Virus genome (UHGV): UHGV-0140552
Reading direction: 5' to 3' (one strand)
Source: a virus
DNA length: 35,002 nucleotides
How positions within the stretch are numbered: the stretch's first letter is position 1; every line of letters starts with the position of its first letter. Both the position numbers and the translations under genes were made by a program. Of this stretch, positions 10,168 to 35,002 are shown piece by piece. Under the pieces are notes generated by a model, which ran no database searches, was not told the origin of the DNA, and worked only from the letters and a program-made list of their open reading frames with translations.

Positions 10168-10754
10168 ATAACAAATACACCCTGATTTATTGCGATCCGC
10201 CCTGGACTTATCGCGACAAAGCCAACGATGGGGAACGCGGCGCCGGGCACAAATACCAGACCATGACTGTGCTCGATATCTGCCGTCTCCCGGTCTGGGA
10301 ACTGGCCGCTGAAAACTGCCTGCTGGCTATGTGGTGGGTACCTACTCAGCCGCTGGAGGCGTTACGAGTAGTCGAGGCGTGGGGGTTCCGCCTGATGACC
10401 ATGAAAGGCTTTACGTGGAACAAATGCTACAGCCGGCAGACCGACAAACTGGCCCTTGGAATGGGCCATATGACCAGGGCGAACAGTGAGGATTGCCTTT
10501 TCGCTGTGCAGGGGAAATTGCCCGCCCGGCTGGATGCCGGGATCGTTCAGTCATTCACGGCCCCGCGTCTGGAGCATTCGCGCAAACCGGATATCGTGCG
10601 CGAAAAGCTTGTGCAGCTGCTGGGCGATGTACCGCGTATTGAGTTATTCGCCCGCCAGTCTTCGCATGGTTTCGACGTGTGGGGCAACCAGTGTGAATCG
10701 CCAGCGGTGGCGCTGCTGCCGGGCATTGCGGAATATATCGGGGAGGTTTCTTAA
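10164..10754 (+). CDS. DNA N6-adenine methyltransferase, MT-A70 family (196 aa), orphan phage MTase, GTG start
   Basis: Catalytic DPPW motif (IYCDPPW) near the N-terminus. No adjacent restriction endonuclease gene. Confidence 0.85.
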   Translation: MNNKYTLIYCDPPWTYRDKANDGERGAGHKYQTMTVLDICRLPVWELAAENCLLAMWWVPTQPLEALRVVEAWGFRLMTMKGFTWNKCYSRQTDKLALGMGHMTRANSEDCLFAVQGKLPARLDAGIVQSFTAPRLEHSRKPDIVREKLVQLLGDVPRIELFARQSSHGFDVWGNQCESPAVALLPGIAEYIGEVS

Positions 10755-10919
10755 CCATGAATAACAGTACACAGGATTTTATAGACTATGAGTTCTCCAT
10801 GCTTCAAACTGTCACTATAGATTTTGTACTGACGGTATGTTAAAAATGTAGATGGATTTTTGTTTGACAAAAATTTAACCGCTTGTGTCCTTAAGAGTTT
10901 TATTAAAACTAGGTTTTTT

Positions 10920-11402
10920 ATGATAAAAATAGATGAACTAAAAGAAGCCGTTTCTACTTTTGATGACGTTTCTGATCTCAATGTTTCTAACAAAGGAGTT
11001 AATTTTAAATACCAAGGCGTTCAGACTATTATTAATACGTGTGAGAGTGATAAAATTTCAGCGAATAAAATAATTGTTATGAATTCTTTTAAGTCCCCGG
11101 AATCTATTGACAGTAAGATTATGGGTGAAAAAATCGCGGAGATTGTTAATATGACTTCGCTGTCCCCTGCGAAGACTACTTATGTACACTTCCCTGATGA
11201 TGGTGGAGCATTCTTTTTTAGAAATATATTTTCGGATAAATTAAATGCTTTGGAATATAATGACGATGTTTCCAGGCGGCTATTCTTATCTAATTTGAAG
11301 GTTGTTCTTCTCGGAATGATGCTGGAGAATTATAACTGCTTTCATGATGTTAAAGAAGAGGCTTCGAAACTGTGTGAGGCGCTGAATGATGAAAGCAAAT
11401 GA
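10920..11402 (+). CDS. Hypothetical cytoplasmic protein (160 aa), gene 1 of an AT-rich two-gene cassette
   Basis: ORF in a markedly AT-rich island. First ATG at 10920 (the ORF track extends to a TTG at 10860). No recognisable motif. Confidence 0.6.
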   Translation: MIKIDELKEAVSTFDDVSDLNVSNKGVNFKYQGVQTIINTCESDKISANKIIVMNSFKSPESIDSKIMGEKIAEIVNMTSLSPAKTTYVHFPDDGGAFFFRNIFSDKLNALEYNDDVSRRLFLSNLKVVLLGMMLENYNCFHDVKEEASKLCEALNDESK

Positions 11403-11787
11403 TGCTCCACGTATAATTATACAGCTGATTTTAAGTGCGTTTGTATTTTTTGCTTTCTCTTTTAAATATAAGGCCCAATTAATAGGGTTTCTTTCTGAAC
11501 AGGTATATTACCAATTGTTGATAATAACAGTCATATTGACTGGGTATTTTTCACGCTGGATTGATGAGTTGCGTATTTTCTTATGTCATCATTTTATGAT
11601 GACTTGCAATAAGCAATATAAAGTAAAGTATCTCAAGGACAATGCATCGGTTTTGTTAAAGCAGGCAGAGAATGCTAATATTTCAGAAGAAGCGAAAGCA
11701 ATGGTTTCTGAAATGACTGGTTCAGATTTTGAATTGGAGGTTAAAATTAAATCTTTAAGTGAGGAAATAAAAAGAATAAAAGGTTGA
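11386..11787 (+). CDS. Predicted membrane protein with 2 TM helices and a C-terminal coiled coil (133 aa), gene 2 of the AT-rich cassette
   Basis: Two hydrophobic segments (IIIQLILSAFVFFAFSF; QLLIITVILTGYF). Overlaps the upstream gene by 17 nt, implying co-translation. Confidence 0.65.
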   Translation: MMKANDAPRIIIQLILSAFVFFAFSFKYKAQLIGFLSEQVYYQLLIITVILTGYFSRWIDELRIFLCHHFMMTCNKQYKVKYLKDNASVLLKQAENANISEEAKAMVSEMTGSDFELEVKIKSLSEEIKRIKG

Positions 11788-11831
11788 TGGAGTGTTTATT
11801 ATTTGAGATAGGACTAATTATGAATTGTTAA

Positions 11832-11866
11832 ATAAATGAAGAGGTGATCTCACTCTCTTCATTTAT
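11832..11866 (+). terminator. Perfect 12-bp inverted repeat ATAAATGAAGAG / CTCTTCATTTAT with 11-nt loop; possible cassette terminator or protein-binding palindrome
   Basis: Read from sequence, 45 nt downstream of the cassette stop codon. The U-tract is weak. Confidence 0.4.
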
Positions 11867-11940
11867 CATCTAGTAAGTTATCAGTTCCAGTGGACAGAAA
11901 AAATAATATTTTACGTTGAGATAATTCCCTATGCATAGGT

Positions 11941-12147
11941 TCAGAAAATAATAGGGATGAGATGTAGGTTACTGGACAAAAATCGAGCTAGTAGGCCGAG
12001 TACATCGCTATGCTGATCCGATAGGATGATGCGCGAGTTAGTGGCCACATCAAATCGATCAGCAAACGCCTGTGTGGAAAGTGCGATGAGTCGCTGCCAA
12101 TCATCTCCTGCCCGTGTGCTTAAACTGTCAGCATAGCGAACAACCAT
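11941..12147 (-). CDS. Doubtful small ORF (68 aa from ATG 12147)
   Basis: ORF without a convincing Shine-Dalgarno. Could be a gene remnant. Confidence 0.25.
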   Translation of the reverse strand: MVVRYADSLSTRAGDDWQRLIALSTQAFADRFDVATNSRIILSDQHSDVLGLLARFLSSNLHLIPIIF

Positions 12148-12278
12148 ACCAGACAAAACAGAACCGTCAGAAATGGCGGTTTTCTTTATAATTCAATCGG
12201 ATATTTTGAGGTTTATTGTTGATTTTTAACGATTCGTGCTCTTAAAAATTTGCGCTCACTGTCAGTTGGTAGTATATA

Positions 12279-12298
12279 TACTGTAATTTTATACAGTA
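12279..12298. promoter_or_regulatory. LexA (SOS) box TACTGT-AATTTTAT-ACAGTA
   Basis: Perfect CTGT-N8-ACAG with the flanking TA/TA of the E. coli-type consensus TACTGTATATATATACAGTA. Overlaps a candidate promoter (-35 TTGGTA 12266-12271, -10 TATACA 12290-12295) and lies 20 nt upstream of a GTG start. Confidence 0.7.
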
Positions 12299-12318
12299 TT
12301 GTTGTTGAGGGAGAGGTA

Positions 12319-12510
12319 GTGGTTGATAAGAAAGACGCAGGAGACCTTCTCCCCGACGATGGTGATGTACTGATAACGTGTGAAAATGGGAAGATTAAGA
12401 AGACCAGAATTGTCCATTCCGATGAGCACGTAGCGACACTTAACGCGTTGTTTGAATTAGCTAAATTGACGGGTTATACCATTATCAAACCAGACGGCAA
12501 TATGCTATAA
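12319..12510 (+). CDS. Small protein (63 aa, GTG start) under the LexA box; candidate SOS-controlled antirepressor or induction factor
   Basis: GGGAGAGG Shine-Dalgarno 5-6 nt upstream of GTG 12319. The longer ORF-track call would place the LexA box inside the coding region. Confidence 0.5.
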   Translation: MVDKKDAGDLLPDDGDVLITCENGKIKKTRIVHSDEHVATLNALFELAKLTGYTIIKPDGNML

Positions 12511-15113: not shown

Positions 15114-16739
15114 ATGGATCAACTCGCCAGCCGGTTAATCAGGCGCGCTGACACGCTGAAAGCAAATCGCCAGGTGCACGAAAGCGTCTGGCGGGAATGC
15201 TACGACTACACCTATCCGCTGCGCGGGGCCGGGTTTTCGTCTGAGGTGCTGGACGCACAGAGCGCAAAGCACAAGGTTGCGAAGCTGCTGGACGGCACAG
15301 CCACCGACAGCGCCCGTATGCTGGCGTCCGCGCTTATGTCAGGGATGACCCCGGCGAATGCTCAATGGCTGAACCTCGACAGCGAATTACTTCCTGATGA
15401 CGCTAAGGCGTGGTTGTCCACCTGTGCAACGCTGGTATGGGAAAATATCCACGCCGCTAACTTTGACGCGGAAGGGTACGAGGCCAATCTCGATGTGGTC
15501 TGTGCTGGCTGGTTCGCGCTGTACGTCGATGAGGACAAGGAAGAGGGCGGATTTACCTTCCAGCAGTGGCCGCTGGCGCAATGCTTTGTGACCTCCACAC
15601 GTCGCGACGGCATCGTTGATACGATATATCGCTGCTATCAGCTCACCGCTGAACAGGCAGTGAAAGAATTCGGCGCGGACAAGGTAAGCGAAAAAATCCG
15701 CGTCGCTGCAAAAAACAAACCCGACGATAAATTTGATTTTCTGCACTGTATTTTCCCGCGCGATACCTACGTCGTAAATGCGAAGCTGGCGCGCAATATG
15801 CGTTTTGCATCGTTCAACGTGGAAGTGAGCGGCAAGCGTATCGTGCGTGAATCCGGCTATCACGAATTCCCTGTATGCGTCCCGCGCTGGATGAAAATCC
15901 CCGGTGGCTCCTACGGTATAGGCCCGGTATACGACGCGCTGCCGGACTGCAAAGAACTGAACGAAACCAAACGCATGGAGAAGGCCGCGCAGGATCTGGC
16001 TATCTCCGGCATGTGGATTGCTGAAGATGACGGCGTACTCAACCCGCGTACGGTCAAAGTCGGCCCGCGCCGCATCATCGTGGCGAACAGTACCGAAAGC
16101 ATGAAACCGTTGCTCACCGGCGCAGATTTCAACGTGGCGTTTACCGCTGAAGAACGCCTGCAGGCTTCCATCCGCAAAATCATGATGGCCGACCAGCTGC
16201 AACCGCAGGACGGCCCGGCGATGACCGCTACCGAAGTGCATGTGCGTGTCGCGCTGATCCGCCAGTTGCTTGGCCCGGTCTATGGACGATTCCAGGCTGA
16301 ATACCTGCAACCGCTGGTGGAGCGCTGCTTCGGTATTGCGTTCCGCGCTGGCGTTTTTCCTCCCGCTCCCGAGAGCCTCCAGAGCGCCAATTTCAACGTG
16401 CGTTATATCTCCCCGCTGGCCCGTGCGCAGAAGCTGGAAGATGTGACCGCCATCGAGCGATACGGCCAGAACATCATGCAGCTGGCGCGGGCGTACCCGG
16501 ATGTACTGGACAACATGGACAGCGACGAGGCGAGCAAGGTTGTCGGCGAGGCTCTTGGCGTTCCGGCAAAAGTTATGCGTTCCGCTGATGCGGTCGAGCA
16601 ACTTCGACAGCAGCGCCAGCAGATGCAACAGCAGCAGGCGCAACAGCAGTTGCTGATGCAGGCCGGGACGGAAGCCGCCGGCGCAGCAGGGCAGGCAGCA
16701 GGCGCAATTATGGGACAACGACTGGCGGGCAACCAATGA
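15114..16739 (+). CDS. Portal (head-to-tail connector) protein, T7 gp8-like (541 aa)
   Basis: Length, N-terminal pattern and Gln-rich C-terminal tail (QQRQQMQQQQAQQQLLMQ) typical of podovirus connector proteins. Followed by scaffold and capsid genes. Confidence 0.8.
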   Translation: MDQLASRLIRRADTLKANRQVHESVWRECYDYTYPLRGAGFSSEVLDAQSAKHKVAKLLDGTATDSARMLASALMSGMTPANAQWLNLDSELLPDDAKAWLSTCATLVWENIHAANFDAEGYEANLDVVCAGWFALYVDEDKEEGGFTFQQWPLAQCFVTSTRRDGIVDTIYRCYQLTAEQAVKEFGADKVSEKIRVAAKNKPDDKFDFLHCIFPRDTYVVNAKLARNMRFASFNVEVSGKRIVRESGYHEFPVCVPRWMKIPGGSYGIGPVYDALPDCKELNETKRMEKAAQDLAISGMWIAEDDGVLNPRTVKVGPRRIIVANSTESMKPLLTGADFNVAFTAEERLQASIRKIMMADQLQPQDGPAMTATEVHVRVALIRQLLGPVYGRFQAEYLQPLVERCFGIAFRAGVFPPAPESLQSANFNVRYISPLARAQKLEDVTAIERYGQNIMQLARAYPDVLDNMDSDEASKVVGEALGVPAKVMRSADAVEQLRQQRQQMQQQQAQQQLLMQAGTEAAGAAGQAAGAIMGQRLAGNQ

Positions 16740-16969
16740 TCAAAAAAGACGTAACCCCTGAAGACTACCGGCGCATTTTCGAGGAGATGCCCGGCGGGCC
16801 GCAGGTGCTGGACGAATTAACGCGCCGCTTCGGGCGTGAGGTGTATGTCAAAGGCGGTACCGAAGGCGACCGCGAAACCTGTTACCGGGCCGGACAGCGT
16901 TCCGTGCTCGATTTCATTCTGATGCAAATCAACAAAGCAGACGGAGTAAACGACGATGTGGAAGTTTAA
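16736..16969 (+). CDS. Hypothetical small protein (77 aa) between the portal and scaffold genes
   Basis: ORF overlapping the portal stop (ATGA). Confidence 0.5.
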   Translation: MIKKDVTPEDYRRIFEEMPGGPQVLDELTRRFGREVYVKGGTEGDRETCYRAGQRSVLDFILMQINKADGVNDDVEV

Positions 16970-17804
16970 ACACTTATTCATGAACACCGAAACAGGTGCA
17001 GAAGCGCCAGCGGGTAACGCAGGAGGGGATGATGCTGGTAATGGCGATGGTACTCAAAATCCGGGCGGCGGTACTCCTGCTGGTACTTCGCTACTCAGCA
17101 CCGGCGCGGGCGAACAAGGCGCGGATGACTGGCTACCTGAAAAATACCGCGTTATGGGCGATGACGGAAAACTCAACGTTGAAGGCTCAGCCCGCAAACT
17201 GGCGGATGCTTACTCGCACCTTGAAAAGCGCATGGGCAGCGGGGACATGCCGCCGAAAACTGCTGATGAGTATGCGCCAAAGGTAGAAGTCGAGGGCTTT
17301 AAGTGGGACGAATTCAAAGCCGATCCGCGCATGCAATCATTCATGAAATCGGCTCATGCCAAAGGCATCACCAACGATCAGATGGGTTTCATCCTGGGCG
17401 AATATGCACAGCTGGCCCCAGAGCTGGTTAACGGTGCTGCGGCGCTGGATTCGGAAGCCGCCGCCACGCAACTGCGCGAGACGTGGAAAACTGACGCCGA
17501 GTTTAATAAAAACATCGGCCTGGCTTTCCGTGCATTTAATACCCTGGCGGATGACGGCGACAAAGGGCGCATGGACGAAATCGGCAATAACCCGATGGTG
17601 ATCCGCATGTTGGCGAAAATCGGTGCTGAAATGCAGGAGGATGCACCGGCGGGCGGCGATGTGAATCTCGAAGAGCAGCAATCAATCCGCGACCTGATGA
17701 AGTCTCCGGCCTACATGGATCCTAAACACGCCGACCATGAGAATGTTTCCGCCCGGGTTCGCGCCTATTACCAAAAGCGTTACGGCGATCAAACCGTAGC
17801 GTGA
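16956..17804 (+). CDS. Capsid assembly (scaffolding) protein, T7 gp9-like (282 aa)
   Basis: Acidic, Gly/Ala-rich N-terminus and a T7 gp9-like C-terminal tail, positioned between portal and capsid. Confidence 0.65.
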   Translation: MWKFKHLFMNTETGAEAPAGNAGGDDAGNGDGTQNPGGGTPAGTSLLSTGAGEQGADDWLPEKYRVMGDDGKLNVEGSARKLADAYSHLEKRMGSGDMPPKTADEYAPKVEVEGFKWDEFKADPRMQSFMKSAHAKGITNDQMGFILGEYAQLAPELVNGAAALDSEAAATQLRETWKTDAEFNKNIGLAFRAFNTLADDGDKGRMDEIGNNPMVIRMLAKIGAEMQEDAPAGGDVNLEEQQSIRDLMKSPAYMDPKHADHENVSARVRAYYQKRYGDQTVA

Positions 17805-17835
17805 CATGTCACGACTACGGTCTGGGCCACTGGTC

Positions 17836-18135
17836 TTATTGCTTATTAAGCCAATCGAGGCCAGTGGCTGTTATAAAGGTTTGTCTGGTATCGATAAGCC
17901 AACGACCTTCACCGCGTTTAGGGTTGTCTATCTGCGCTCCATCCTCATCAATATATAAGTATTGAACCTGTGAGGATATCAGTCCTTTTTGATACATATA
18001 GAGAATGTGGCCATCAAGTTTATCTTCGCCATACGTCCTTAATAATTTGGTATATCCATCAGTCATTAATGGGTGCGGATAAAACTCTTGCAAATATTTT
18101 AATATATCGAAACAAACATTTTCTTCAATTTTCAT
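17836..18135 (-). CDS. Moron: hypothetical protein (99 aa) on the opposite strand between scaffold and capsid genes
   Basis: AT-rich island. TAAGGAAT Shine-Dalgarno upstream of ATG 18135. Orientation opposes the virion operon. Confidence 0.55.
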   Translation of the reverse strand: MKIEENVCFDILKYLQEFYPHPLMTDGYTKLLRTYGEDKLDGHILYMYQKGLISSQVQYLYIDEDGAQIDNPKRGEGRWLIDTRQTFITATGLDWLNKQ

Positions 18136-18202
18136 CAATTCATTCCTTAGTTGCTTAGAGCAACACCAGTATGGCACTAGTTTTTGTGCAGATATAGGTA
18201 TT

Positions 18203-18218
18203 TGGTCGGGATTCCGAC
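18203..18218. repeat. Hairpin motif GGTCGG-GATT-CCGACC (copy 1 of 4), upstream of the capsid gene; followed by ATCACTCCA at 18235-18243
   Basis: Identical 20-mer TTGGTCGGGATTCCGACCGC recurs at 30919-30938. Confidence 0.8.
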
Positions 18219-18369
18219 CGCGCACCTCGCTAACAATCACTCCATAACCAGCCCGGCGGGGACGCCGGATACCTGATTTCTCCCGCAATGCGCCAGCGCC
18301 AACCGCATTGTGCAGATTTGGGCCGGGAAACCGACACCCCGCAGGCGATTTTTTACTGGAGTGATTTTT

Positions 18370-19275
18370 ATGTCATTTGATACAAACAAGAACATGATCA
18401 CCGCTGCGTTTGTTACGCAGTTTCATGATTCTTTCGAAATTGCTGCACAGCAAAAGGATTCGCGCCTGCAAGCGGCTGTCCATGACCGTGGCAGCATCAC
18501 CGGTGCGTCGTTCACCATCAACGATATGGGCACCATTGAGATGACCCAGATCACCACGCGCTTCGGTGATACTGTCTGGGATGTTCCGGAAGCTGGTACC
18601 CGTAATGCGCTGATGGCCGACTACGGCGTTTTCGTCCCGGTCGAGAAACGCGACCTGCGCAAGCTGATTGCCGACCCGCAGGGGCCGTATTTGCAGCTCA
18701 CCCTGTCCGCCGCCAACCGCAAAAAAGACGATGTTATTTACCGCGCGCTGCTCGATGCGGTACTGCGTAAGACTGAGAACAACGGCGCGTATGCATCCGT
18801 TACCCTCCCGGCCTCGCAGAAAATCGTTGCTGGTGGTACCGGCATGACCAAAGCCAAACTGATCGCAGCAAAAGCGATGTTCCGCCGTAACGAGTGTGAC
18901 GAGCAGAACGGCGAAGAGCTGTACATGACGTACAACGCCGACATGCTGACGCAGATCCTCAGCGATACCACGCTGACCAGCGCCGACTTTATGGCGGTGA
19001 AAATGCTTCAGGAAGGTGCGGTAAACGGTAACTGGCTGGGCTTTAAATGGCTGGCTTACGAGAAACTGGACTCTGTGACCGCCGAAAGCGTCACCACCAA
19101 AACCGCCGCCGCCTGGTGTAAGTCCGCTGTGCATTTCGGTACCGGCGCTGAGTACAACGTCGATATCGGCCCGCGTCGCGATAAAAATAACACCATCCAG
19201 ATTTCCGTTGATGCGTCCTATGGCGCTGGCCGCGCCAACGAGAAAAAAGTCGTTGCCATCGATTTTGTAGCATAA
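18370..19275 (+). CDS. Major capsid protein (301 aa)
   Basis: Position after the scaffold gene, size, and GGAG Shine-Dalgarno. Assigned by synteny; similarity to T7 gp10 was not obvious by eye. Confidence 0.6.
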   Translation: MSFDTNKNMITAAFVTQFHDSFEIAAQQKDSRLQAAVHDRGSITGASFTINDMGTIEMTQITTRFGDTVWDVPEAGTRNALMADYGVFVPVEKRDLRKLIADPQGPYLQLTLSAANRKKDDVIYRALLDAVLRKTENNGAYASVTLPASQKIVAGGTGMTKAKLIAAKAMFRRNECDEQNGEELYMTYNADMLTQILSDTTLTSADFMAVKMLQEGAVNGNWLGFKWLAYEKLDSVTAESVTTKTAAAWCKSAVHFGTGAEYNVDIGPRRDKNNTIQISVDASYGAGRANEKKVVAIDFVA

Positions 19276-19334
19276 AGCCGCTGGTACCTTTGCCGGGGGA
19301 TCCCTCCCGGCCTTTTTTCATCTGAGGTAAGGCT

Positions 19335-19898
19335 ATGGCTTCCAGTATCTCTATCTGTTCTAACGCACTGCTGGCGCTCGGCGCTCATCCCATTAACAGC
19401 TTCGACGAAGCGACCGAACACGCCCGCCTGTGCTCCAATATTTACCCTACCGTACGCAATGACCTGCTGCGAAAACATCCATGGAACTGCGCGGTAAAAC
19501 GCGTCGTGCTCTCACCGTCCAGCACCGCGCCCGCGTTTGGTTTCGGCTACCAGTTCCCGCTGCCGGGCGATTTAATCCGGATCCTGTCCGTTGGCCGTGA
19601 GTATGAGGATATCGGGTACCGCGTTGAAGGAAACCGCCTGCTGGCGAATCAGAACGTAATTTATCTGCGCTACCTGTTTCGTAACGAGGATGAATCGACG
19701 TGGGATTCGTCGCTGGTCAATCTGGCCGAAGCGTTCATGGCCGCAAAGCTGGCGTACGCCGTCACCGGCTCCGCGAGTCTGCGCGACAGTCTGACGCAGG
19801 AAGCTGCATTCCTTCTTCGCCAGGCCAAATCTATCGACGGACAGGAAGAACCGCCGGAAACGCTGGACGGCTATCCAACTTATGAATCGAGGTTCTGA
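19335..19898 (+). CDS. Tail tubular protein A, gp11-like (187 aa)
   Basis: Size and position after the capsid gene, as in T7-like podovirus gene order. Confidence 0.55.
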   Translation: MASSISICSNALLALGAHPINSFDEATEHARLCSNIYPTVRNDLLRKHPWNCAVKRVVLSPSSTAPAFGFGYQFPLPGDLIRILSVGREYEDIGYRVEGNRLLANQNVIYLRYLFRNEDESTWDSSLVNLAEAFMAAKLAYAVTGSASLRDSLTQEAAFLLRQAKSIDGQEEPPETLDGYPTYESRF

Positions 19899-21889
19899 TG
19901 CGCGCGAACCTGATAAAAACCAATTTTACCGCGGGTGAAATTTCCCCGCGCCTGATGGGGCGTGTTGATATCGCCCGCTATGCCAACGGTGCAAAAATTA
20001 TCGAAAACGCGGTGTGCGTGGTGCAGGGCGGTGTCGTTCGCCGACCGGGTACGCGCTTTGCCGCTGCCGCTAAATATGGTGACCGGACAGCACGACTGAT
20101 CCCCTACGTCTTTAACCGCTCGCAGGCGTACATGCTCGAATTTGGCGACGGGTATCTGCGCATCTACCAGAACGGCCGGCAGCTGGTAAACGACGATAAT
20201 ACCCCGTATGAAATCGCCAGCCCGTACACCGTCGATATGTTGTCTGAGGTGAATTACGTGCAGGGCGCTGACACGATGTTTTTAGTGCACCAGAGCGTCC
20301 CGCCGCACCGCTTGCAGCGTAAGGGGCAAACTGATTGGGTACTGGAAGCCGCGCCGTTTATCGTGGAACCATTCGACGAAATCCGCGACACGCCGGAGAA
20401 ATGGTGTAAGCCATCGGTTAAAGAATTCGTCGGCTCAGAAATCACGCTGACGCTCAGTGATGCCGAACCCGCAGATGATGACGATTCCCCCGCGTTTACT
20501 GGTACCGGCTGGGTATCGGAGGACGTTGGTTCGTACGTTCGTATTAACAGCGGTCTGGTGCTAATTAAGAGCATCACCAGCGCGCAGATTGCTGTCGGCA
20601 CCATCCGCACCGATTTAAGCGCAACGCAGGCGGCATCCCCCGGAGCCTGGACACGTGAAGATACTGTCTGGACGGAGGAATTTGGCTACCCCGGCGCGGT
20701 GACGCTGTACCAGCAGCGGCTGGTTCTGGCTGGTTCCCCGCAGTACCCGCAAACAATCTGGTGGAGCGAAACCGGCGTTTACCTGTCGTTTGAGCTGGGA
20801 ACGGACGACGACGACGCGATCAGCTTTACGCTGTCTTCTGACCAGTTAAACCCGATCGTGCATCTGGCGCAGATGAATACGCTTATCGCGCTGACGTACG
20901 GCGGCGAGTTTACAATCACTGCCGGCAGCGACGCGGCGATCACCCCGACCAATATTTCGGTAAAAAATCCCAGCCCGTACGGCTGCAACAGCATTCGCCC
21001 GGTTCGTGTCGGTACCGAAATTATGTTTATCCAGCGTGCCGGGAAAAAACTGTATGCCGTGGCGTATGACCCCGACAGCTACGTTTCGTATTCCGCCAAT
21101 GATTTAACGGTGCTGGCCGAACACATCACGGCCGGCTGCGTCCTCGATATGGCGTATCAGCAACAGCCTGATGCGTTCGTGTGGCTGATCCGCGCCGATG
21201 GCGTACTGGTGACGATGGGTATCGACCGGGCGCAGGATGTAGTCGCATGGTCACGCCAGATCACCGATGGCGTTTTTGAATCGGTGGCGAGTATTCCCTC
21301 GGAAAGCGACGACGTGATTTATGTTCTGGTGCGCCGGGAAGTTAACGGCCAGACCGTTCGTTATGTTGAAGTATTCGACAGCAACCTGAATACCGATTCC
21401 GCAGTAACCGGCTCCAGTTCAGAAGGTGCCACCACGTGGACAGGTCTTTCTCACCTCAATGGAAAAACGGTTGATGTGGTGGCCGATGGTTCCGTGATGC
21501 CGCAGGCAACGGTAACAGACGGGCAAATCACTCTCAGCCGCAAAGCGAAAAAAATCGAAGTAGGCCTGCATTACGAAACCACCATCCAGACGCTGACGCC
21601 GGAAATCTCAACGACAGAAGGCACCACGCAGAACGCCCGCAAGCGTACCAGCGAAGTCACGCTCCGCTTTATGGAAACCACTGGCGCGGAGTGCAACGGT
21701 CAGGTGATCCCCTTCCGTACCTTCGGCCCAAAAATCCTTAACCAGCCCGCGCCACTTTTCACCGGTGATCATTATTTCGGGAAACTTGGCTGGGAGCGCG
21801 GGGAAGACACTTTGATTATTCAGCAACGCCAGCCGCTGCCGTTTCATCTGCTGGCGATTATTTTCACGTTCTCCAGCAACGGGGGCTAA
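19898..21889 (+). CDS. Tail tubular protein B, gp12-like (663 aa)
   Basis: Large protein translationally coupled to the gp11-like gene. Assigned by synteny. Confidence 0.6.
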   Translation: MRANLIKTNFTAGEISPRLMGRVDIARYANGAKIIENAVCVVQGGVVRRPGTRFAAAAKYGDRTARLIPYVFNRSQAYMLEFGDGYLRIYQNGRQLVNDDNTPYEIASPYTVDMLSEVNYVQGADTMFLVHQSVPPHRLQRKGQTDWVLEAAPFIVEPFDEIRDTPEKWCKPSVKEFVGSEITLTLSDAEPADDDDSPAFTGTGWVSEDVGSYVRINSGLVLIKSITSAQIAVGTIRTDLSATQAASPGAWTREDTVWTEEFGYPGAVTLYQQRLVLAGSPQYPQTIWWSETGVYLSFELGTDDDDAISFTLSSDQLNPIVHLAQMNTLIALTYGGEFTITAGSDAAITPTNISVKNPSPYGCNSIRPVRVGTEIMFIQRAGKKLYAVAYDPDSYVSYSANDLTVLAEHITAGCVLDMAYQQQPDAFVWLIRADGVLVTMGIDRAQDVVAWSRQITDGVFESVASIPSESDDVIYVLVRREVNGQTVRYVEVFDSNLNTDSAVTGSSSEGATTWTGLSHLNGKTVDVVADGSVMPQATVTDGQITLSRKAKKIEVGLHYETTIQTLTPEISTTEGTTQNARKRTSEVTLRFMETTGAECNGQVIPFRTFGPKILNQPAPLFTGDHYFGKLGWERGEDTLIIQQRQPLPFHLLAIIFTFSSNGG

Positions 21890-28446: not shown

Positions 28447-28449
28447 CTA

Positions 28450-28968
28450 TTACGACTTACATGATTCGGGGGAAACCCCAAACCCAAACATGAGGGTTTT
28501 CCCTGAATCACTGTAGTAATTGATCATTATTTTTTTATTTTCTTTTCGGGTTTCGTAGAATAGCCGCTCTTGAGATGACACTGGGTAAAATCCATCTGGT
28601 GCACAATACAAATCCCTTAAATTTTTCAATGTTGAATTTTTAGCGTCTTCTGATGTAAATTTTATAAAATCGTCTGTGTAAACATTGGCATTGTAACTAG
28701 ATATGGTTTTACTTCCTTCCACATAGTGAGTATTAGTTTCACTAAAATCTGCGTTTTCTTTATAGGTTCGCAAGTGTAATACCGATACATGGATCTCAAT
28801 TTTTTTACCAGTGTCGATACCGTTAATGACCGTATAGTCGGTATATGGATTGGTAATCTGTATTCCTGGTCCGGATATAGGAACGATATATTTAGAGTCA
28901 TCAACTAAATCGGTTGATGCGAATGCTGCAAAGTGAAAGATTAGCAACAATGGAATTAATATCTTCAT
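28450..28968 (-). CDS. Moron: secreted/periplasmic protein with signal peptide (172 aa)
   Basis: AT-rich island, opposite strand. N-terminal signal peptide MKILIPLLLIFHFAAFA|STD. AAGGAG Shine-Dalgarno. Confidence 0.7.
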   Translation of the reverse strand: MKILIPLLLIFHFAAFASTDLVDDSKYIVPISGPGIQITNPYTDYTVINGIDTGKKIEIHVSVLHLRTYKENADFSETNTHYVEGSKTISSYNANVYTDDFIKFTSEDAKNSTLKNLRDLYCAPDGFYPVSSQERLFYETRKENKKIMINYYSDSGKTLMFGFGVSPESCKS

Positions 28969-28987
28969 TCTATTTACTCCTTGTGAT

Positions 28988-29003
28988 AGTCAGGATTCCG
29001 ACC
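28988..29003. repeat. Hairpin motif variant AGTCAG-GATT-CCGACC (copy 2 of 4), upstream of the terminase genes
   Basis: Read from sequence; shares the GATTC core and flanking arms with the other three copies. Confidence 0.7.
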
Positions 29004-29050
29004 TCAAAAAGAATACATCATAGCTCTATGGATAACCACGGGGCTTTTTT

Positions 29051-29392
29051 ATGCATTCAGATTACAAAACTCGCCTTACTGCTCTTAGCGATAAGCTCAC
29101 CGATGTAGTTCTGGAAGAAGCCGATCCGGACAACTGGCCGGGGGCAGGGAAGGAAATCACAAAGCACACTAAACAGGAACGCGGTGATCGGTACTGGCAT
29201 AAGAAGAACGCGGCCGCATCGCTGACGCTGCTGGTAAAAGTCCATTCGCTGATTGGCATGCATACGCGCGGGGGGACGCCTAAACCCGGCGAGGATCCGG
29301 ACGATGAAGCATTCCGCCTGGGGCAACAGGTATCTGCGGCTGAACGGGCAGCACAGGAAGTTATCGAACGCATACAACAGCGGAAAAAATGA
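29051..29392 (+). CDS. Putative terminase small subunit (113 aa)
   Basis: Small protein translationally coupled (ATGA) to the large terminase gene. Assigned by position. Confidence 0.45.
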   Translation: MHSDYKTRLTALSDKLTDVVLEEADPDNWPGAGKEITKHTKQERGDRYWHKKNAAASLTLLVKVHSLIGMHTRGGTPKPGEDPDDEAFRLGQQVSAAERAAQEVIERIQQRKK

Positions 29393-30999
29393 TTTCATTC
29401 GTCGCCTTTTTCATCATATGGGCGGAGCGGATGGGGTGGGAGGTTCCCGACTGCCATTATCGAGCCTGCCACTGGTTGGAACACCGCGGGGATCTCGCGG
29501 TGCTTCGCTGTTTTCGTGGCTTTGGTAAATCTACCATTCTGGCGGTGTATAACGCATGGCGATATTACCAGAACCGCCAGTACCGCATTCTTCACCAGTC
29601 TGAAGCTGACGGCACCGCGTACAAAACCAGCCGCGATACGCAGAACGTTTTACGCAATCACCCACTGACCAAAGGCATGCTACCGGACGGACAGGGAACC
29701 GTTGAACAGTGGTGGGTTAACGGCTCTCTGGATATGCGTAACGGCAGCATGTACGCAAAGGGGATCCTCTCTAACGTTACCTCGGCCCGCGCTGATGAAT
29801 GCCAGAACGATGACGTAGAAGTACCCCGCAATATCCAGACGCCAGAGGCGCGGGAAAAGCTGCGTTATCGTCTCGGTGAACAGACACACATTCTTGTCCC
29901 CGGCGGGCGAAAGCTGTTTATCGGCACGCCGCATACCCACGATAGCCTTTACGATGAGGTTGAATCTATGGGCGCCGACTGTCTGACCATCAAACTATTC
30001 GGTAAAGAATTTAGAATCGAGGAAAAACAGGCCACCGCGAGCCGTTACTCGTTACCGTTCCGGCCGGAATATGTTTTCGTCGGTATTCACATTGGCGCGC
30101 GACTGCTCGTTGAAGGTGTTGATTATCGTCTTAACGATGACGGTATCGAGTTTGCCGAGGCTCCCGGCACCACGGTTGACTGTTACGCCGATTGTGAATG
30201 GCCAGAAAGGTTCACTCCGGAGGAAATGACAAAGCGCCGTCGCGAGACTCGCACAATTAACGAATGGGACAGCCAGTACCAGCTGCACAGTAAACCGGTT
30301 GGCGAGGTTCGTCTCGATCCCGACCGCATACGCGAATACAACGTACAGCCTGAAATCCGGTACGCGAACCGCTCCTGCTCGATGTGGCTTGGCCAGACGC
30401 AAATTGTTGGTGCTGTTGCCTGGTGGGATGTGGCCACCGGCAAAGTTAAGGCCGACGCCTCGGCGTTCTCTCTGATTTTCACCGACGCACGCGGGCATCT
30501 GTACTGGCATGTTTGCCAGGGGCTTACGGGCGAACTGGCGGAATTCGACGACAACGACAAAATCACCGGCGGTCAGGTGATGCAGATTAAAGAGCTGGTG
30601 CTTAAATACCAGATCCCGCTGGTCTGCGTCGAGGTGAACGGCCCGGGCAGCTTTGCCGGGAAATTGCTGATTCAGGCACTAAAGGGTACCGGCTGCGGCG
30701 TACGGGAAGAATTCAGCGTGACCAATAAACAAAAGCGCATCCTCGATGCATTCGAAGCGCCGCTGTCGTCGCGCTTCCTCTGGGCGCATACCGACGTGCT
30801 CGACGGCCCAATGTATGACCAGATGCGCGACTTTAACCCGGCGCTGACTAATCAGCCAGATGACTTTATCGACTCTGGCTCTGGCGCAATCAGCTCAACA
30901 CCAGTGCGCATTGGTAAATTGGTCGGGATTCCGACCGCACAGGCGCGGGAACATTGGCAACCAAATGATGGCGATCACATGGTCGCCGTAGATTACTAG
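29389..30999 (+). CDS. Terminase large subunit (536 aa)
   Basis: Walker A-like FRGFGKST near the N-terminus, size, and coupling to the small-subunit gene. Confidence 0.75.
   Translation: MISFVAFFIIWAERMGWEVPDCHYRACHWLEHRGDLAVLRCFRGFGKSTILAVYNAWRYYQNRQYRILHQSEADGTAYKTSRDTQNVLRNHPLTKGMLPDGQGTVEQWWVNGSLDMRNGSMYAKGILSNVTSARADECQNDDVEVPRNIQTPEAREKLRYRLGEQTHILVPGGRKLFIGTPHTHDSLYDEVESMGADCLTIKLFGKEFRIEEKQATASRYSLPFRPEYVFVGIHIGARLLVEGVDYRLNDDGIEFAEAPGTTVDCYADCEWPERFTPEEMTKRRRETRTINEWDSQYQLHSKPVGEVRLDPDRIREYNVQPEIRYANRSCSMWLGQTQIVGAVAWWDVATGKVKADASAFSLIFTDARGHLYWHVCQGLTGELAEFDDNDKITGGQVMQIKELVLKYQIPLVCVEVNGPGSFAGKLLIQALKGTGCGVREEFSVTNKQKRILDAFEAPLSSRFLWAHTDVLDGPMYDQMRDFNPALTNQPDDFIDSGSGAISSTPVRIGKLVGIPTAQAREHWQPNDGDHMVAVDY
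30921..30936. repeat. Hairpin motif GGTCGG-GATT-CCGACC (copy 3 of 4), inside the 3' end of the terminase gene, upstream of the tail fibre gene
   Basis: Exact copy of the 18203-18218 hairpin and its 20-nt context. Confidence 0.8.
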
Positions 31000-31016
31000 C
31001 CGCCGGAGTTCCTCGT

Positions 31017-33536
31017 ATGTCGGTACCGAACCAGACACCCTATAACATCTATACCGCCAACGGGCTGACGACTGTCTTTGCCTATGAGTTTTACCTGATC
31101 AGCGCCAGCGATATTCAGGTCACAATCAACGGCAACGAAGTAACGTCCGGCTATACAGTGTCTGGTGTGGGTAATACTGGCGGTGGCGAAGTTACTTTTC
31201 TGACCGCGCCGGCCAATGGCGCTACAGTCATTTTTGAACGTGTAACGCCGACTTACAGGCTCACTGATTACCAGGACAACGGCGACCTGCTGGCCGATAC
31301 AGTTAACAAAGATTTTGACCGTCTCTGGATGGCTACTCAGCGCGCGTTTATTTATCTCGGAGTGGCCCTAAGTCGCCCGCTGTTCGGCGGTGGACCTTTC
31401 AACGCTAACGGCTACCGGATAGCAAATCTGGCCGATCCAGTTAACGATCAGGATGCAGCTACTAAAAAATTTGTAATTGAAAATGGAAAAATTAATCTAG
31501 CTCGTACTCTACGCGTTCCGGAGTCTAGCATCACACCGTTACCTTCCATTGCAGAACGAAAAAATAAAATCGTTGCAATGGATAATAATGGCAATCCATT
31601 GATGGTATTGCCTTCGAGTGGAAGTGCAGCAGATGTAATGATTGAGTATGCCAAACCGACAGGTAGCGGGCATATAGGGGTTCTTACTGGAGGCACCGTT
31701 GAAGATGCAATAAAATACGTAACCCCTGAAATGATAAGGATTAATGGTGAAAGATATATTCACGGCATCACTGCTGATGCAACTAAATTTCTACAGGCAG
31801 CTATAGATTACGGAAAAGCTAATAACCTTCCGGTATATTTAACTAAAATGTATCCGTGCATATCTTCACCGATAGAGTTTAATTTGCCATTCGACGATGG
31901 GACTGTATACCCAGGGTGGATAGGGAACGGTGATTCAAATATTGCTCCTGAAATACCAGTTAAGGCAAAAGCAGCACTGCGTGTTTATGATGATTCAATG
32001 ATTGTTGGTGAAAACCAACACAATTGTGGGATTATTGGTAATTTTTCAAAAACTGCGGGACCATGGGATCATACATCTTCCATGGGTCTATACATCGCAG
32101 GTGACAGCGGACCAGATCAATACATAAAGTATCACCTTTCTGATTTCAGGATTAGCGGATTCTTTATTGGGCAATGGGTAGACGGGACTGTAAACCGCTG
32201 TGTAGAAAATAATATGATGTACTCAGGGTGTGCCATTCCTGCTTGTTATCAAGGATCTGATTCTCTGGCGCAAACTGGGCTGACATTATATTGGTATAAT
32301 ATTACAGGCCCTGTTTTTGGCGGGCGCTGGCTAACGAGAAATCATGCATACGCGTCTCAGTACCTTCCGCCGTACCCGGCATCAGATATTCATCGGGCGG
32401 GATGGAATGATTCGTACCATGTAGACAAGTTTCATTATTATGGTGATACCGGCATGGACTGGACACATCCAGCATATGCCGCTCTTGACACTTGGTTTGA
32501 TACGTATGTTTTCAAGTCTGCAAACTGCTTGCCTACGGCCAGCGGTGGTCGGTTGTCAAATAATCAGCAGAATGGGGTTTACCCAGTTGATACCTATAGA
32601 GGTATAGCTGGGCGCGCAAGAACTATTATTTCACTTCCGGGAAGGGAGATATTGCATTGCAATATTGGTGAGGCTAAAGTGCTGTGGTCTCCAAGAACGC
32701 CATTCTACCACTCTGCTCAATTCGTTGACGGATTTAAATCATATGTTGGTAACAGTAAAATAAGGACTCTTATACTGGAAAGGGTAGGAATCATCAAGTA
32801 TGGCCTTGGTGATGTTGCTGGAAATAGATTTAATGTTAATAATGTTGATCCCTACGAACCATCTCTTTCAACATTTCCAGCGATGGCAACAAGAGGAAAT
32901 ATTTTCGCCCTTGATATTGTAAAAGGTGGCGCGGTTCAGGCTGCCCCAGTTAATGAATTTAACGGCACAAGAATCGGTGCCGGTGAGAATATAGTTGCTC
33001 AAAGAAAGCTTGGAGATAATTCAAACTATCGTCTTTTCGGTCTTCAGGAGTTAAACGGAACAAATTTATCCGATAAGTATGTTTTTAATCGAAATGATGC
33101 CTATATGCCGCCAATAGCTTTTCCCGGTGGTAATGCTGCTCAGTTTAAGTATCTTTATGGCTCATTCACACCAACTATTACAATTGGCGGGGCAAGCGTA
33201 ACGCCATCATCCATTACTGGAATTTACCGTAGGTTTGGTGATGTTGTTCGTTGCGATATAAGAGTCAGATCAACCTCTTTACTGGTTAGTACTGCGGGAG
33301 CCATAGTCATTAGTGGTCTTCCTTTTACAGCCGCCTCAATACAGGAGGGTGGGTCTAAAGGAAGCATAATTCTAAGCACGGCTACAGGAGTTTTTGTTAT
33401 GCCGCTTGTTCCTGCAGGGACAAATCAAATGACGATTATAAAATCGTCAGCCCAAGAAATATATTCTCAAGCAGCTGGTACTTTTGATTTTACTCTCCAG
33501 TGTACTTTTGATTATGTTGTTCCTTTTAATTCATGA
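31017..33536 (+). CDS. Tail fibre / tailspike (839 aa) with T7-like N-terminal adaptor domain and an AT-rich distal receptor-binding region
   Basis: N-terminal segment NGYRIANLADPVNDQDAATKKFV parallels T7 gp17 (RGRRIVNLANAVDDRDAVPFGQL). GC content drops after about 31450. Confidence 0.8.
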   Translation: MSVPNQTPYNIYTANGLTTVFAYEFYLISASDIQVTINGNEVTSGYTVSGVGNTGGGEVTFLTAPANGATVIFERVTPTYRLTDYQDNGDLLADTVNKDFDRLWMATQRAFIYLGVALSRPLFGGGPFNANGYRIANLADPVNDQDAATKKFVIENGKINLARTLRVPESSITPLPSIAERKNKIVAMDNNGNPLMVLPSSGSAADVMIEYAKPTGSGHIGVLTGGTVEDAIKYVTPEMIRINGERYIHGITADATKFLQAAIDYGKANNLPVYLTKMYPCISSPIEFNLPFDDGTVYPGWIGNGDSNIAPEIPVKAKAALRVYDDSMIVGENQHNCGIIGNFSKTAGPWDHTSSMGLYIAGDSGPDQYIKYHLSDFRISGFFIGQWVDGTVNRCVENNMMYSGCAIPACYQGSDSLAQTGLTLYWYNITGPVFGGRWLTRNHAYASQYLPPYPASDIHRAGWNDSYHVDKFHYYGDTGMDWTHPAYAALDTWFDTYVFKSANCLPTASGGRLSNNQQNGVYPVDTYRGIAGRARTIISLPGREILHCNIGEAKVLWSPRTPFYHSAQFVDGFKSYVGNSKIRTLILERVGIIKYGLGDVAGNRFNVNNVDPYEPSLSTFPAMATRGNIFALDIVKGGAVQAAPVNEFNGTRIGAGENIVAQRKLGDNSNYRLFGLQELNGTNLSDKYVFNRNDAYMPPIAFPGGNAAQFKYLYGSFTPTITIGGASVTPSSITGIYRRFGDVVRCDIRVRSTSLLVSTAGAIVISGLPFTAASIQEGGSKGSIILSTATGVFVMPLVPAGTNQMTIIKSSAQEIYSQAAGTFDFTLQCTFDYVVPFNS

Positions 33537-33543
33537 GGCTAAT

Positions 33544-33813
33544 ATGACTTTCAGAGTGACGCAGACCATAGGAAAATCTATAGCATATCCAACGCTAGGT
33601 GTATGGATGCCATCAGAAGATACATCGATTGAAGTTGAATACCAGGCTGTATCGTTAATATCGCTAAATAATGGAACAGCGACTGTTTCATTTAAAGTTA
33701 GCATTGATGGTTGTCTTTCCTGTGGGGAGCTTACCCATTCTTTTGTGTATTCTGGGTCAGGAAGCCCTCTTGAAGAGGCAGAGGAATCACTTAAAAGAAA
33801 ACTCCAAATATAG
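33544..33813 (+). CDS. Hypothetical protein (89 aa) downstream of the tail fibre gene
   Basis: ORF in an AT-rich region with ATG at 33544. Possibly a fibre accessory protein. Confidence 0.45.
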   Translation: MTFRVTQTIGKSIAYPTLGVWMPSEDTSIEVEYQAVSLISLNNGTATVSFKVSIDGCLSCGELTHSFVYSGSGSPLEEAEESLKRKLQI

Positions 33814-33823
33814 AATTTCATTT

Positions 33824-33839
33824 AGTCAGGATTCTGACC
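33824..33839. repeat. Hairpin motif variant AGTCAG-GATT-CTGACC (copy 4 of 4), upstream of the lysis cassette; followed by ATCACTCCA at 33861-33869
   Basis: Read from sequence. Confidence 0.7.
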
Positions 33840-33895
33840 TTAGCTTCGCCTTACCCTCGCATCACTCCACATAGTGATCCCCATGGGGGTAAGGC

Positions 33896-34126
33896 ATGCG
33901 AATGAAGAATTTACCGGATGTGGCGGCTGGCACGTCGTACATCACATCCACTGTCAGCGGGAGCTACTGGCTGCTGCAACTTCTCGATAAGGTAAGCCCC
34001 AGCCAGTGGGCGGCTATTGGCGTACTGGCCAGTATTGTTTTTGGGCTGCTTACCTACCTCACTAATTTGTACTTCAAAATCAAAGACGACCGGCGGAAGG
34101 CACAGGACTATGAGCAACAAAGCTAA
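33896..34126 (+). CDS. Holin (76 aa), probably pinholin-type
   Basis: Small protein with a hydrophobic helix ([23 protein letters not shown]) and charged C-terminus, immediately upstream of and overlapping a SAR-endolysin gene. Confidence 0.6.
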
Positions 34127-34646
34127 GTTCAGCGCCGCTATGCTGGCGCTTCTGGCCGCCGGTGCATCTGCACCGATACTGTTCGATCAGTTTATCAGCG
34201 AAAAAGAAGGTAACGCGCTGGTGGCCGTTGTTGACCCCGGCGGTGTGTGGTCATTGTGCCACGGAGTAACCGTTATAGATGGCAAGCGTGTCATTAAGGG
34301 CCAAAGAGCAACTGAGGAACAGTGCAGGAAGGTAAACGCCATTGAGCGTGATAAGGCGCTTGCCTGGGTAGAAAAGAATGTGCTCGTTTCTTTGACGCCG
34401 CCGCAGAAGGTCGGCATAGCCTCATTCTGCCCGTACAACATCGGGCCGGGTAAATGCTTCCCCTCAACGTTCTATCGCAAGCTGAACGCAGGCGACCGTA
34501 AAGGTGCATGCGCGGAGATCCGGCGATGGGTGTTCGACGGAGGCCGGGATTGCCGACTGACCAAAGGCCAGAAGAATGGCTGCTACGGGCAGGTTGACCG
34601 CCGCGATCAGGAAAGCGCTTTGACGTGCTGGGGGCTGTACGAATGA
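34110..34646 (+). CDS. SAR endolysin (lysozyme, 178 aa)
   Basis: Weakly hydrophobic Gly/Ala-rich N-terminal signal-anchor ([17 protein letters not shown]) followed by a lysozyme-like catalytic segment ([26 protein letters not shown]). ATG 34110 lies within the holin 3' end. Confidence 0.75.
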
Positions 34647-35002
34647 ACGGAAAAACCAAACTGGTGATTGTTGGTGGCGTGCTGGCGGTATGCGCCGGGA
34701 TTTACTGGGCGGGGTATCTGAAAGGCTGGTACGCACATTCAGAGCAAGTAAACAGCCAGGCTAAACAAAGGCTACCGAAGCAGGAAAAGGCAGTTGCCGC
34801 TGGTGAGCAGAAAGCAGCGACGGCGAACGCCGAAGCCAAAGTGATTTACCGTACCGTTTATCGTGATGTGGTGAAATATGTCAATGACCCGAATCGTACT
34901 GTGTGCCAGTTTGATCCTGCTGCTGTGCAGCTGCGCCAACGAGCAATCGACGCGGCCAACGCCATCCCCGGATTTGATGAACCGACCGTGCAAGATAAGT
35001 AA
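34643..35002 (+). CDS. Rz-like i-spanin (119 aa)
   Basis: N-terminal TM helix followed by a charged, Ala/Gln/Lys-rich periplasmic region. ATGA overlap with the endolysin. Stop codon at 35000-35002. Confidence 0.7.
   Translation: MNGKTKLVIVGGVLAVCAGIYWAGYLKGWYAHSEQVNSQAKQRLPKQEKAVAAGEQKAATANAEAKVIYRTVYRDVVKYVNDPNRTVCQFDPAAVQLRQRAIDAANAIPGFDEPTVQDK
34884..35002 (+). CDS. Rz1-like o-spanin lipoprotein, embedded in the +1 frame of Rz; 3' end runs past the window
   Basis: ATG 34884 opens MTRIVLCASLILLLCSCANEQSTRPTPSPDL..., with a lipobox (LLCSC) and Pro-rich mature region. Not in the ORF track because it is truncated by the window end. Confidence 0.55.
   Translation, partial: MTRIVLCASLILLLCSCANEQSTRPTPSPDLMNRPCKIS

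Follow-up and report, generated by a model that had tools for sequence, protein, structure and literature searches.

We analysed a window of 35,002 nucleotides (nt), the viral genome UHGV-0140552, in which a tail fibre gene is followed by a small open reading frame (ORF) of 89 amino acids (aa); both lie on the plus strand where the initial annotation had placed them (31017–33536 and 33544–33813). We consider it very probable that this locus combines an anchor domain belonging to the phage's own lineage with a cassette acquired by recombination, which comprises a capsule depolymerase module and the small gene, the product of the latter being a putative helper of the tailspike. The initial annotation had described the fibre as a chimera of a conserved T7-like N-terminal adaptor and an AT-rich, swapped distal domain, with the small ORF in the same transferred block, and each element of this description was borne out by base composition, homology and domain matches.

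The guanine-plus-cytosine (GC) content of the window changes sharply inside the fibre gene. A two-segment maximum-likelihood scan found the left change-point 424 nt into the gene, at nt 31441, close to the ~450 nt originally claimed; GC is 0.550 before this point and 0.423 after it, and the likelihood ratio of 66.8 compares with 15.9 at most in 500 permutations. The right change-point is located at 33843 (0.417 to 0.548), between the stop codon of the small ORF (33813) and the start of the holin gene (33896). The AT-rich block includes the fibre from ~aa 142 to its end and the entire small ORF, which has a GC content of 0.40. Past ~aa 145 of the fibre, GC at third codon positions (GC3) drops from 0.43–0.73 to 0.17–0.40, and therefore the shift affects synonymous sites and not only amino-acid composition. 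This rough halving of GC3 argues against an explanation without horizontal exchange, in which the drop would reflect the amino-acid make-up of a beta-helix or relaxed codon selection. The distal tail-fibre parts of sibling prophages are also slightly below backbone GC in many bins (0.40–0.51), as such an explanation would have it. However, the step is found within ~55 nt of the position where DNA homology to these siblings is lost, and the block takes in a separate small gene and ends no more than 30 nt past its stop codon. In addition, homologues of the distal module carry the GC of the genome in which they reside, with values of 0.315 in K64-1, 0.41 in UPM 2146, 0.48 in JY917 and 0.52 in KN1-1. 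We thus regard a purely compositional origin of the step as very improbable. Because the module has a GC content of 0.42 in a backbone of 0.55 whereas its homologues match their own genomes, these values suggest that it is a fairly recent import from a lower-GC phage, the composition of which has not yet drifted to that of the backbone.

To delimit the replaced block, we compared the window at the DNA level with three sibling prophages (L013, L014 and L015) that have the same neighbouring virion, terminase and lysis genes; the chromosomal flank, with dapA-like, SEC-C and ferritin genes, is common to L013 and L014. These prophages are 84–92% identical to the window from 28986 to 31571–31646 and then again from 33816. 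When identity was calculated per 60-nt bin, it was 77–97% up to 31496, ~0.63 at 31497–31556 and 0.42–0.62 thereafter, reaching background from ~31620. Between these two arms the siblings hold different distal domains and different small ORFs; all three, as well as a Raoultella prophage, become similar to the window again at 33815 or 33816, only 2–3 nt past the stop codon of the small ORF. Since homology is lost in the distal fibre and regained after the small ORF, the replaced block corresponds to the distal fibre plus the small ORF, and it appears to be bounded by anchor-coding DNA on the left and by the conserved leader of the holin gene on the right. Alignment with related prophages, by which the initial annotation had expected a recombination breakpoint to be located, thus placed it at ~31496 (aa 160).

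The same discontinuity is apparent at the protein level among the 120 best matches to the fibre protein. In 90 of these 120 proteins, all Klebsiella proteins named “phage tail fiber”, the anchor is at least 70% identical and a distal match is undetectable. Across the 91 proteins that share the anchor but not the distal part, the median identity is 95% over aa 1–160 and 59% over aa 161–220. Another 17 of the 120 share only aa ~206–839 (52–78% identity) and have other N-termini in front. Among the 120 listed, no protein reaches both 70% identity in the anchor and 45% in the distal part. The distal-only homologues begin at aa 179–226, except for one that begins at aa 126. The sequence comparisons place the DNA breakpoint at ~aa 160 and the cross-family junctions further on, at aa 181–226, past the start of a linker (aa 161–220) that is conserved as protein but diverged and AT-rich as DNA.

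Webervirus, Taipeivirus, the jumbo phage K64-1 and another prophage all carry the distal part joined to unrelated N-termini; in Taipeivirus UPM 2146, the distal part together with the small ORF follows a different N-terminal region. One such case is an unrelated prophage (L001), in which the lysis cassette is different and the T7-like anchor has only 36% identity to that of the window. It shares with the window a single stretch of 80% nucleotide identity, 31557–33772, which spans the distal domain and most of the small ORF, with amino-acid identities of 91% for the distal domain and 60% for the small ORF. Over 28986–35002, the window has a 99.1% identical counterpart on a metagenomic contig (L016). 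As this is the same allele with the same breakpoint, it does not count as the uniformly similar homologue that would have spoken against a chimera; such a near-identical copy indicates that the allele is in circulation.

Two further observations concern exchange on a finer scale. The small ORF of L016 (7001–7270, corresponding to window positions 33544–33813) shows 13 differences in 270 nt, or 48 per kb, compared with 0.6 per kb in the terminase gene; these differences are mainly synonymous (ratio of non-synonymous to synonymous substitution rates, dN/dS, 0.18), and their accumulation in this ORF suggests a small recombination patch inside the cassette. Also, in a module type represented by L013, L040, L041 and L051 on one side and L028 on the other (from IMG/VR and NCBI), the central tailspike domain is 93–98% and the small ORF 92–94% identical whereas the last 150 aa are only 53–58% identical, which hints at a separate exchange of the C-terminal domain between two conserved neighbours.

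The N-terminal region of the fibre matches PF03906 (Phage_T7_tail) at aa 9–153 with an E-value of 2e-11 and 44.3 bits, well above the cut-off of 25.2 bits. In a sequence search of the PDB, this N-terminus retrieved the tail fibres Dpo31/Dpo36 (aa 1–252, E 1e-12) and “tail fiber gp9”. The gene has two PHROG matches, both annotated as “tail protein”: phrog_1640 over aa 1–247 and phrog_22560 over aa 202–839 (E 4e-230). Tail genes of the T7 type are also encoded in the window at 15114–21889, with matches to phrog_394 (tail, E 8e-62), phrog_376 (tail, E 8e-220) and phrog_332 (portal/adaptor). The above-threshold N-terminal profile match and this set of tail genes are what is expected of a T7 gp17-type attachment domain, and we predict that the fibre anchor is such a domain, docking the trimer to the tail. 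The resemblance to T7 gp17 is confined to this part: PF03906 forms the N-terminus here as it does in the “anchors” of Klebsiella phage receptor-binding proteins, and tail tubular proteins A and B are encoded upstream, but the remainder of the protein is a predicted tailspike enzyme rather than the shaft and tip of a T7-type fibre, and the phage is temperate.

Several lines of evidence identify the distal part as a probable beta-helix capsule depolymerase of the KN1/KN4 type. A tblastn search of phage genomes found 54–55% identity, over ranges starting at aa ~182, 206 or 217 and extending to aa 839, to tail proteins of Webervirus JY917, Klebsiella phage phi1_175008 (~149 kb) and K64-1 (S1-2); S1-2 is 54% identical over aa 217–839, with the alignment reaching the last residue. 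Weaker relatives were found in the Taipeivirus UPM 2146 group (~51%) and in the tailspikes of KN1-1 and IME321 (31%). A phmmer search of PDB sequences retrieved the KN1-specific depolymerase (9m4c and 9m4d/9m4e) over aa 78–834 with E-values of 4e-92 to 7e-94; a literature search with the code 9M4C gave nothing relevant. S1-2 is named “Depolymerase, capsule KN4-specific” in UniProt, and the KN1 and KN4 (KL124, S1-2) enzymes are placed together in class 4A of DepoCatalog, which is characterised by a short beta-helix of 9–10 rungs followed by a double C-terminal domain (PMC13385381).

A beta-helix or depolymerase fold had been anticipated for this domain, and structure prediction returned a tailspike of the former kind. 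The AlphaFold2 (AF2) model of the fibre has a mean predicted local distance difference test (pLDDT) score of 68.7. It is all-beta from aa 273, with high pLDDT to aa 590; scores are 85–96 over much of the beta-helix and 83–92 in the last domain. The top PDB matches in Foldseek were beta-helix tailspikes, namely Dettilon gp208 (E 2e-9), phi92 gp150, AS12 gp42, Kp7 gp52 and K2-2 TSP. The global template-modelling (TM) scores were low, 0.17–0.25, because the monomer model is poorly packed. Together, homology to validated members and the predicted beta-helix fold are consistent with membership in the KN1/KN4 class 4A group.

Comparison with two validated relatives further defines the module. K64-1 S1-2 has the same predicted layout, a short beta-helix and a two-part C-terminal domain, but it belongs to a jumbo myovirus with a different N-terminal attachment region, its GC content is 0.315 as opposed to 0.42 here, and no phrog_7836 gene, the family of the small ORF, follows it. 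The KN1-specific depolymerase of KN1-1 is homologous over aa 78–834, and both enzymes are carried on an N-terminal anchor by a podovirus with T7-like tail genes. In contrast to the prophage described here, KN1-1 is virulent (Przondovirus), the identity is only ~31%, and its depolymerase gene is directly followed by the gp17.5 holin gene, without a phrog_7836 gene between them.

The small ORF shows the characteristics of a genuine gene. Its start is assigned to the ATG at 33544 based on the family alignment, whereas the mechanical ORF list has it begin further upstream, with a TTG at 33484. It matches phrog_7836 with an E-value of 1.8e-20, aa 1–88 aligning to profile positions 1–88 of 92 and thus over the full length. 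The dN/dS ratio of 0.05–0.18 in six pairs establishes that it is under purifying selection. A word-indexed protein search with the 89-aa sequence found two close relatives only, and an exhaustive HMMER search of 1.84 billion representative proteins found 78 clusters, which are free-standing and mostly of 85–130 aa, barring two large proteins of 979 and 975 aa. The latter have multiple weak matches, represent a type IX-secretion repeat protein and an extracellular contractile injection system (eCIS)-core protein, and were judged spurious. Public names of phrog_7836 members are “hypothetical protein” throughout. The AF2 model of the small protein (pLDDT 84) consists of four antiparallel beta-strands and a C-terminal helix; a family motif, F-x-F-x-YSG-x-GNPL-x-EAE-x-x-L, is positioned at the junction of strand 4 and the helix. 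In BFVD, the fold matches were all uncharacterised proteins, from phages of Klebsiella, Erwinia and Serratia; the seven with E <0.001 had TM scores of 0.67–0.90.

At the junction of the two genes, a scan for promoters and terminators identified no terminator-like or promoter-like site in 33534–33546. The nearest sites were a promoter-like match inside the 3′ end of the fibre gene (33417–33444) and a weak hairpin on the minus strand (33430–33449), and site counts corresponded to shuffle expectation. The 89-aa protein would be made from the fibre transcript, from a ribosome-binding site that overlaps the fibre stop codon.

We gathered other loci of this family with a degenerate DNA pattern for the YSGxGNPLxEAE motif. 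In annotated phages, namely Webervirus K64PH164C4, Erwinia phage Pavtok, the Schitoviridae phage Frozen and the Ackermannviridae UPM 2146, 3M and phiMAM1, the small gene is found 8–58 nt 3′ of a tailspike or exopolysaccharide-depolymerase gene on the same strand. Among 46 members in the fetched loci, each with enough upstream sequence trails a long same-strand ORF of 420–952 aa; the gap is usually 5–16 nt and ~324–367 nt in four. When 30 of the upstream proteins were typed, many matched tail-fibre or tailspike PHROGs, and 11 of the 30 contained Pfam anchor domains (Tail_spike_N or Phage_T7_tail). Across 435 pairs of loci, the identity of the small ORFs was correlated with that of the tailspike central part (Pearson 0.88) and C-terminal part (0.84) but not with that of the first 150 aa (−0.01). 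Likewise, in the 53 pairs whose small ORFs are >60% identical, the central domain is >60% identical in 43 and the anchor is shared in 1. As judged from these sequence identities, the small gene moves together with the distal module and not with the anchor.

In UPM 2146 (record 96191–106881), four consecutive tailspike or tail-fibre genes are each trailed by a small ORF (78, 92, 49 and 88 aa). Only the last of these belongs to phrog_7836, and the other three show no sequence relationship; a small gene 3′ of a tailspike gene may thus be a wider pattern that involves several families. Three IMG/VR contigs (L035, L038 and L044) each contain two phrog_7836 genes on opposite strands. A long ORF precedes both members in L035 and one in L038, whereas the upstream ORF is cut by the locus end in L044 and for the other L038 member. 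Some phages may thus carry two modules of tailspike plus small gene.

The initial annotation had suggested that the small ORF encodes a co-transferred accessory protein or chaperone. The co-transfer held, as the gene tracks the distal module; a chaperone role is at best tentative, as the protein matches no known chaperone family and the gene is missing beside homologous depolymerases in three phages. Based on its position 3′ of tailspike genes in unrelated contexts, likely translational coupling, co-inheritance, purifying selection and the lack of an intramolecular chaperone in the tailspikes, we tentatively propose that the 89-aa protein is a non-essential helper of the distal tailspike, which it might assist in folding, trimerisation or stabilisation, for instance. 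The protein would be neither an enzyme nor a lysogenic-conversion gene product. More broadly, and somewhat more speculatively, phrog_7836 could represent an undescribed class of tailspike-module partners, trans-acting helpers or capping factors, that travel with depolymerase modules through temperate and virulent phages of at least five lineages. Searches of the accessible literature turned up no description of such a small gene 3′ of tailspikes or of its family, and a literature search for virion proteomics of phiMAM1 gave nothing relevant.

A stricter version of this idea, in which folding of the distal domain strictly depends on the small ORF as a tail-fibre assembly chaperone like lambda Tfa or T4 gp38, appears improbable. 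The gene does occupy the classic place directly after the fibre gene, and its sequence varies in step with that of the distal fibre. Moreover, the fibre itself has no Peptidase_S74 intramolecular chaperone domain in Pfam, which disposes of a built-in chaperone, and the same Pfam search found such a domain (S74) in none of the 30 tailspikes that precede phrog_7836 genes. Even so, homologous depolymerases (54–55% and 31%) exist without the gene, and two of them, S1-2 and the KN1 enzyme, are catalogued as depolymerases validated in recombinant form (PMC13385381, PMC6465236). We also found no sequence or fold match of the small protein to the Tfa, gp38 or gp57A families, which argues against membership in any of these. 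By analogy from general knowledge, lambda Tfa, T4 gp38 and Mu/P2 Tfa are likewise encoded immediately 3′ of a receptor-binding gene and co-inherited with its distal end; the protein considered here differs from them in sequence and fold, in being an acidic protein of ~89 aa with a four-strand sheet and a helix, and in being dispensable for homologous enzymes.

The evidence on the helper proposal and on the overall reading of the locus is not all in their favour. The depolymerases of JY917, K64-1 (S1-2) and KN1-1 align to the last residue of the window protein and yet no phrog_7836 gene is adjacent to them; and since S1-2 and the KN1 enzyme are catalogued as active recombinant proteins, the fold can evidently form in the absence of the small protein. 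In the siblings, small ORFs of unrelated sequence also occupy the slot between the fibre and holin genes (L013, 62 and 90 aa; L014, 65 aa; L015, 64 aa), so that part of the linkage could be positional. On the side of the fibre, the AF2 model is poor for aa 1–230, with pLDDT <50 in many stretches, and 54% identity to S1-2 is too low to fix the capsule type that is cut. A serious if unlikely rival is that the small ORF is a hitch-hiking moron whose function is unrelated to the tailspike and which is linked to it only by sitting between the fibre and the next recombination arm. The occupation of the sibling slot by other ORFs and the missing gene in the three phages would fit this, as would the lack of resemblance to known chaperones and the uniformly acidic character of the family (isoelectric point, pI, 4.05–5.03); many phage inhibitor proteins are acidic. 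However, the same adjacency of 5–60 nt on the same strand is retained in genomes with entirely different downstream neighbours, as in Webervirus (with a convergent J-like gene), Pavtokvirus, Frozen, UPM 2146, 3M, phiMAM1 and many IMG/VR contigs, and a positional accident would not persist in at least five lineages under purifying selection. We thus retain the non-essential tailspike helper as our working proposal.

Two other roles were considered and rejected. A function in defence or anti-defence was set aside because PADLOC gave no match. A receptor-blocking lipoprotein similar to T5 Llp was dismissed because the N-terminus is neither signal-peptide-like nor lipobox-like and the model is a soluble sheet-plus-helix protein.

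Bringing the locus together, we propose that the fibre is the single receptor-binding protein of this lineage and a mosaic, in which aa 1–160 would be the lineage's own T7 gp17-type anchor that docks the trimer to the tail. The cassette would have been gained by recombination from a pool of capsule-depolymerase modules common to Klebsiella and related phages, and would extend from the conserved linker (aa ~160–220) to 2 nt past the stop codon of the 89-aa gene. Anchor-coding DNA would have served as the left homology arm and the conserved sequence before the holin gene as the right one. As suggested by its homologues, the distal depolymerase would cut one capsule type and thereby set the host range. 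The features of the locus and of its surroundings are listed in Table 1.

Table 1. Coordinates of the fibre cassette and of other features of the 35,002-nt window.
Feature	Position	Strand	Basis or remark
Integrase	1–1017	minus	
Helix-turn-helix (HTH) repressor-like gene	5264–5650	minus	
DnaB-type helicase	7668–9056		
Portal, capsid, tail tubular proteins A and B, internal virion proteins			T7-like set encoded in the window
T7-type large terminase, 536 aa	29389–30999		Directly before the fibre gene
Tail fibre/tailspike gene, 839 aa	31017–33536	plus	ORF list, Pfam, PHROG
Predicted N-terminal virion-attachment (anchor) domain, aa 1–160	31017–31496	plus	PF03906; backbone GC ~0.53; left homology arm
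AT-rich block	31441–33843		GC 0.417 against ~0.55 on both sides; change-point and permutation control
Linker/neck, aa 161–220, contains ...RTLRVPESSITPLP...	31497–31676	plus	Zone of module junctions
Imported distal module, aa 221–839: predicted right-handed beta-helix capsule depolymerase and two-part C-terminal domain	31677–33536	plus	Homology, AF2, Foldseek
Gene junction	33534–33546	plus	Fibre TGA 33534–33536; GAGG Shine-Dalgarno 33535–33538 overlapping the stop; 5-nt spacer; ATG 33544–33546
89-aa acidic protein (pI 4.75), phrog_7836 (unknown function), within the imported block	33544–33813	plus	Profile match, AF2, dN/dS
Conserved intergenic stretch before the P21-type holin; right homology arm	33816–33895	plus	blastn alignments of L003, L013, L014 and L015 start at 33815/33816
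P21-type holin	33896–34126		Followed by lysozyme and Rz-like gene (P21-type lysis cassette)

The gene content of the window, together with PHROG, Pfam and PADLOC scans, indicates a nearly complete temperate podovirus of the Klebsiella prophage type. The window contains most of this prophage, in which a T7-like virion module is combined with early and lysis genes in the lambdoid style. The element is a hybrid, the integrase, repressor-like gene, DnaB and P21-type lysis genes being joined with a T7-like module for portal, capsid, tail tube, internal proteins and terminase. When 29000–35002 was compared by megablast with a phage collection, and the fibre region with complete E. coli genomes, the only matches were an endolysin fragment and a 332-nt anchor fragment; therefore, the element is neither a known phage nor an E. 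coli prophage.

We observed two other regions of low GC content in the window. An AT-rich island (GC ~0.33–0.37) at 28447–28985 separates the last internal-virion-protein gene from that of the small terminase. On the minus strand (28450–28968) it encodes a 172-aa ORF with a signal-peptide-like N-terminus, which matches phrog_8033 (unknown function) and had no match in Pfam, NCBIfam or PADLOC. The corresponding slot holds other ORFs in sibling prophages (145, 108 and 144 aa), and so it looks like a moron insertion site. The lowest GC of the window (0.33–0.40) is found at 10164–12500. This region includes a Type II DNA methyltransferase at 10164–10754 (PADLOC MTase_II, E 3e-77) just upstream of two ORFs (10860–11402 and 11386–11787) with zero matches in the family scans of the window proteins.

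The exchange of depolymerase modules on conserved anchors is well documented in Klebsiella phages and crosses both phage morphotypes and the boundary between temperate and virulent phages (PMC13385381, PMC13123978, bioRxiv 10.64898/2026.05.12.724579). It is the accepted route by which these phages change capsule specificity. The locus described here is accordingly an instance of ordinary mosaicism, a new and precisely delimited example rather than a discovery, in which only the small-gene family might be worth experimental work. The exact left and right junctions of a natural cassette in a temperate T7-like prophage lineage are of use to engineers who swap receptor-binding modules. In addition, an uncharacterised small gene is shown to belong to the cassette in many lineages. 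If this gene aids tailspike assembly or function, its omission could explain the poor performance of some engineered or recombinant depolymerases. If phrog_7836 does form a class of tailspike-module partners, its members would influence the performance of a receptor-binding module transplanted into a new phage.

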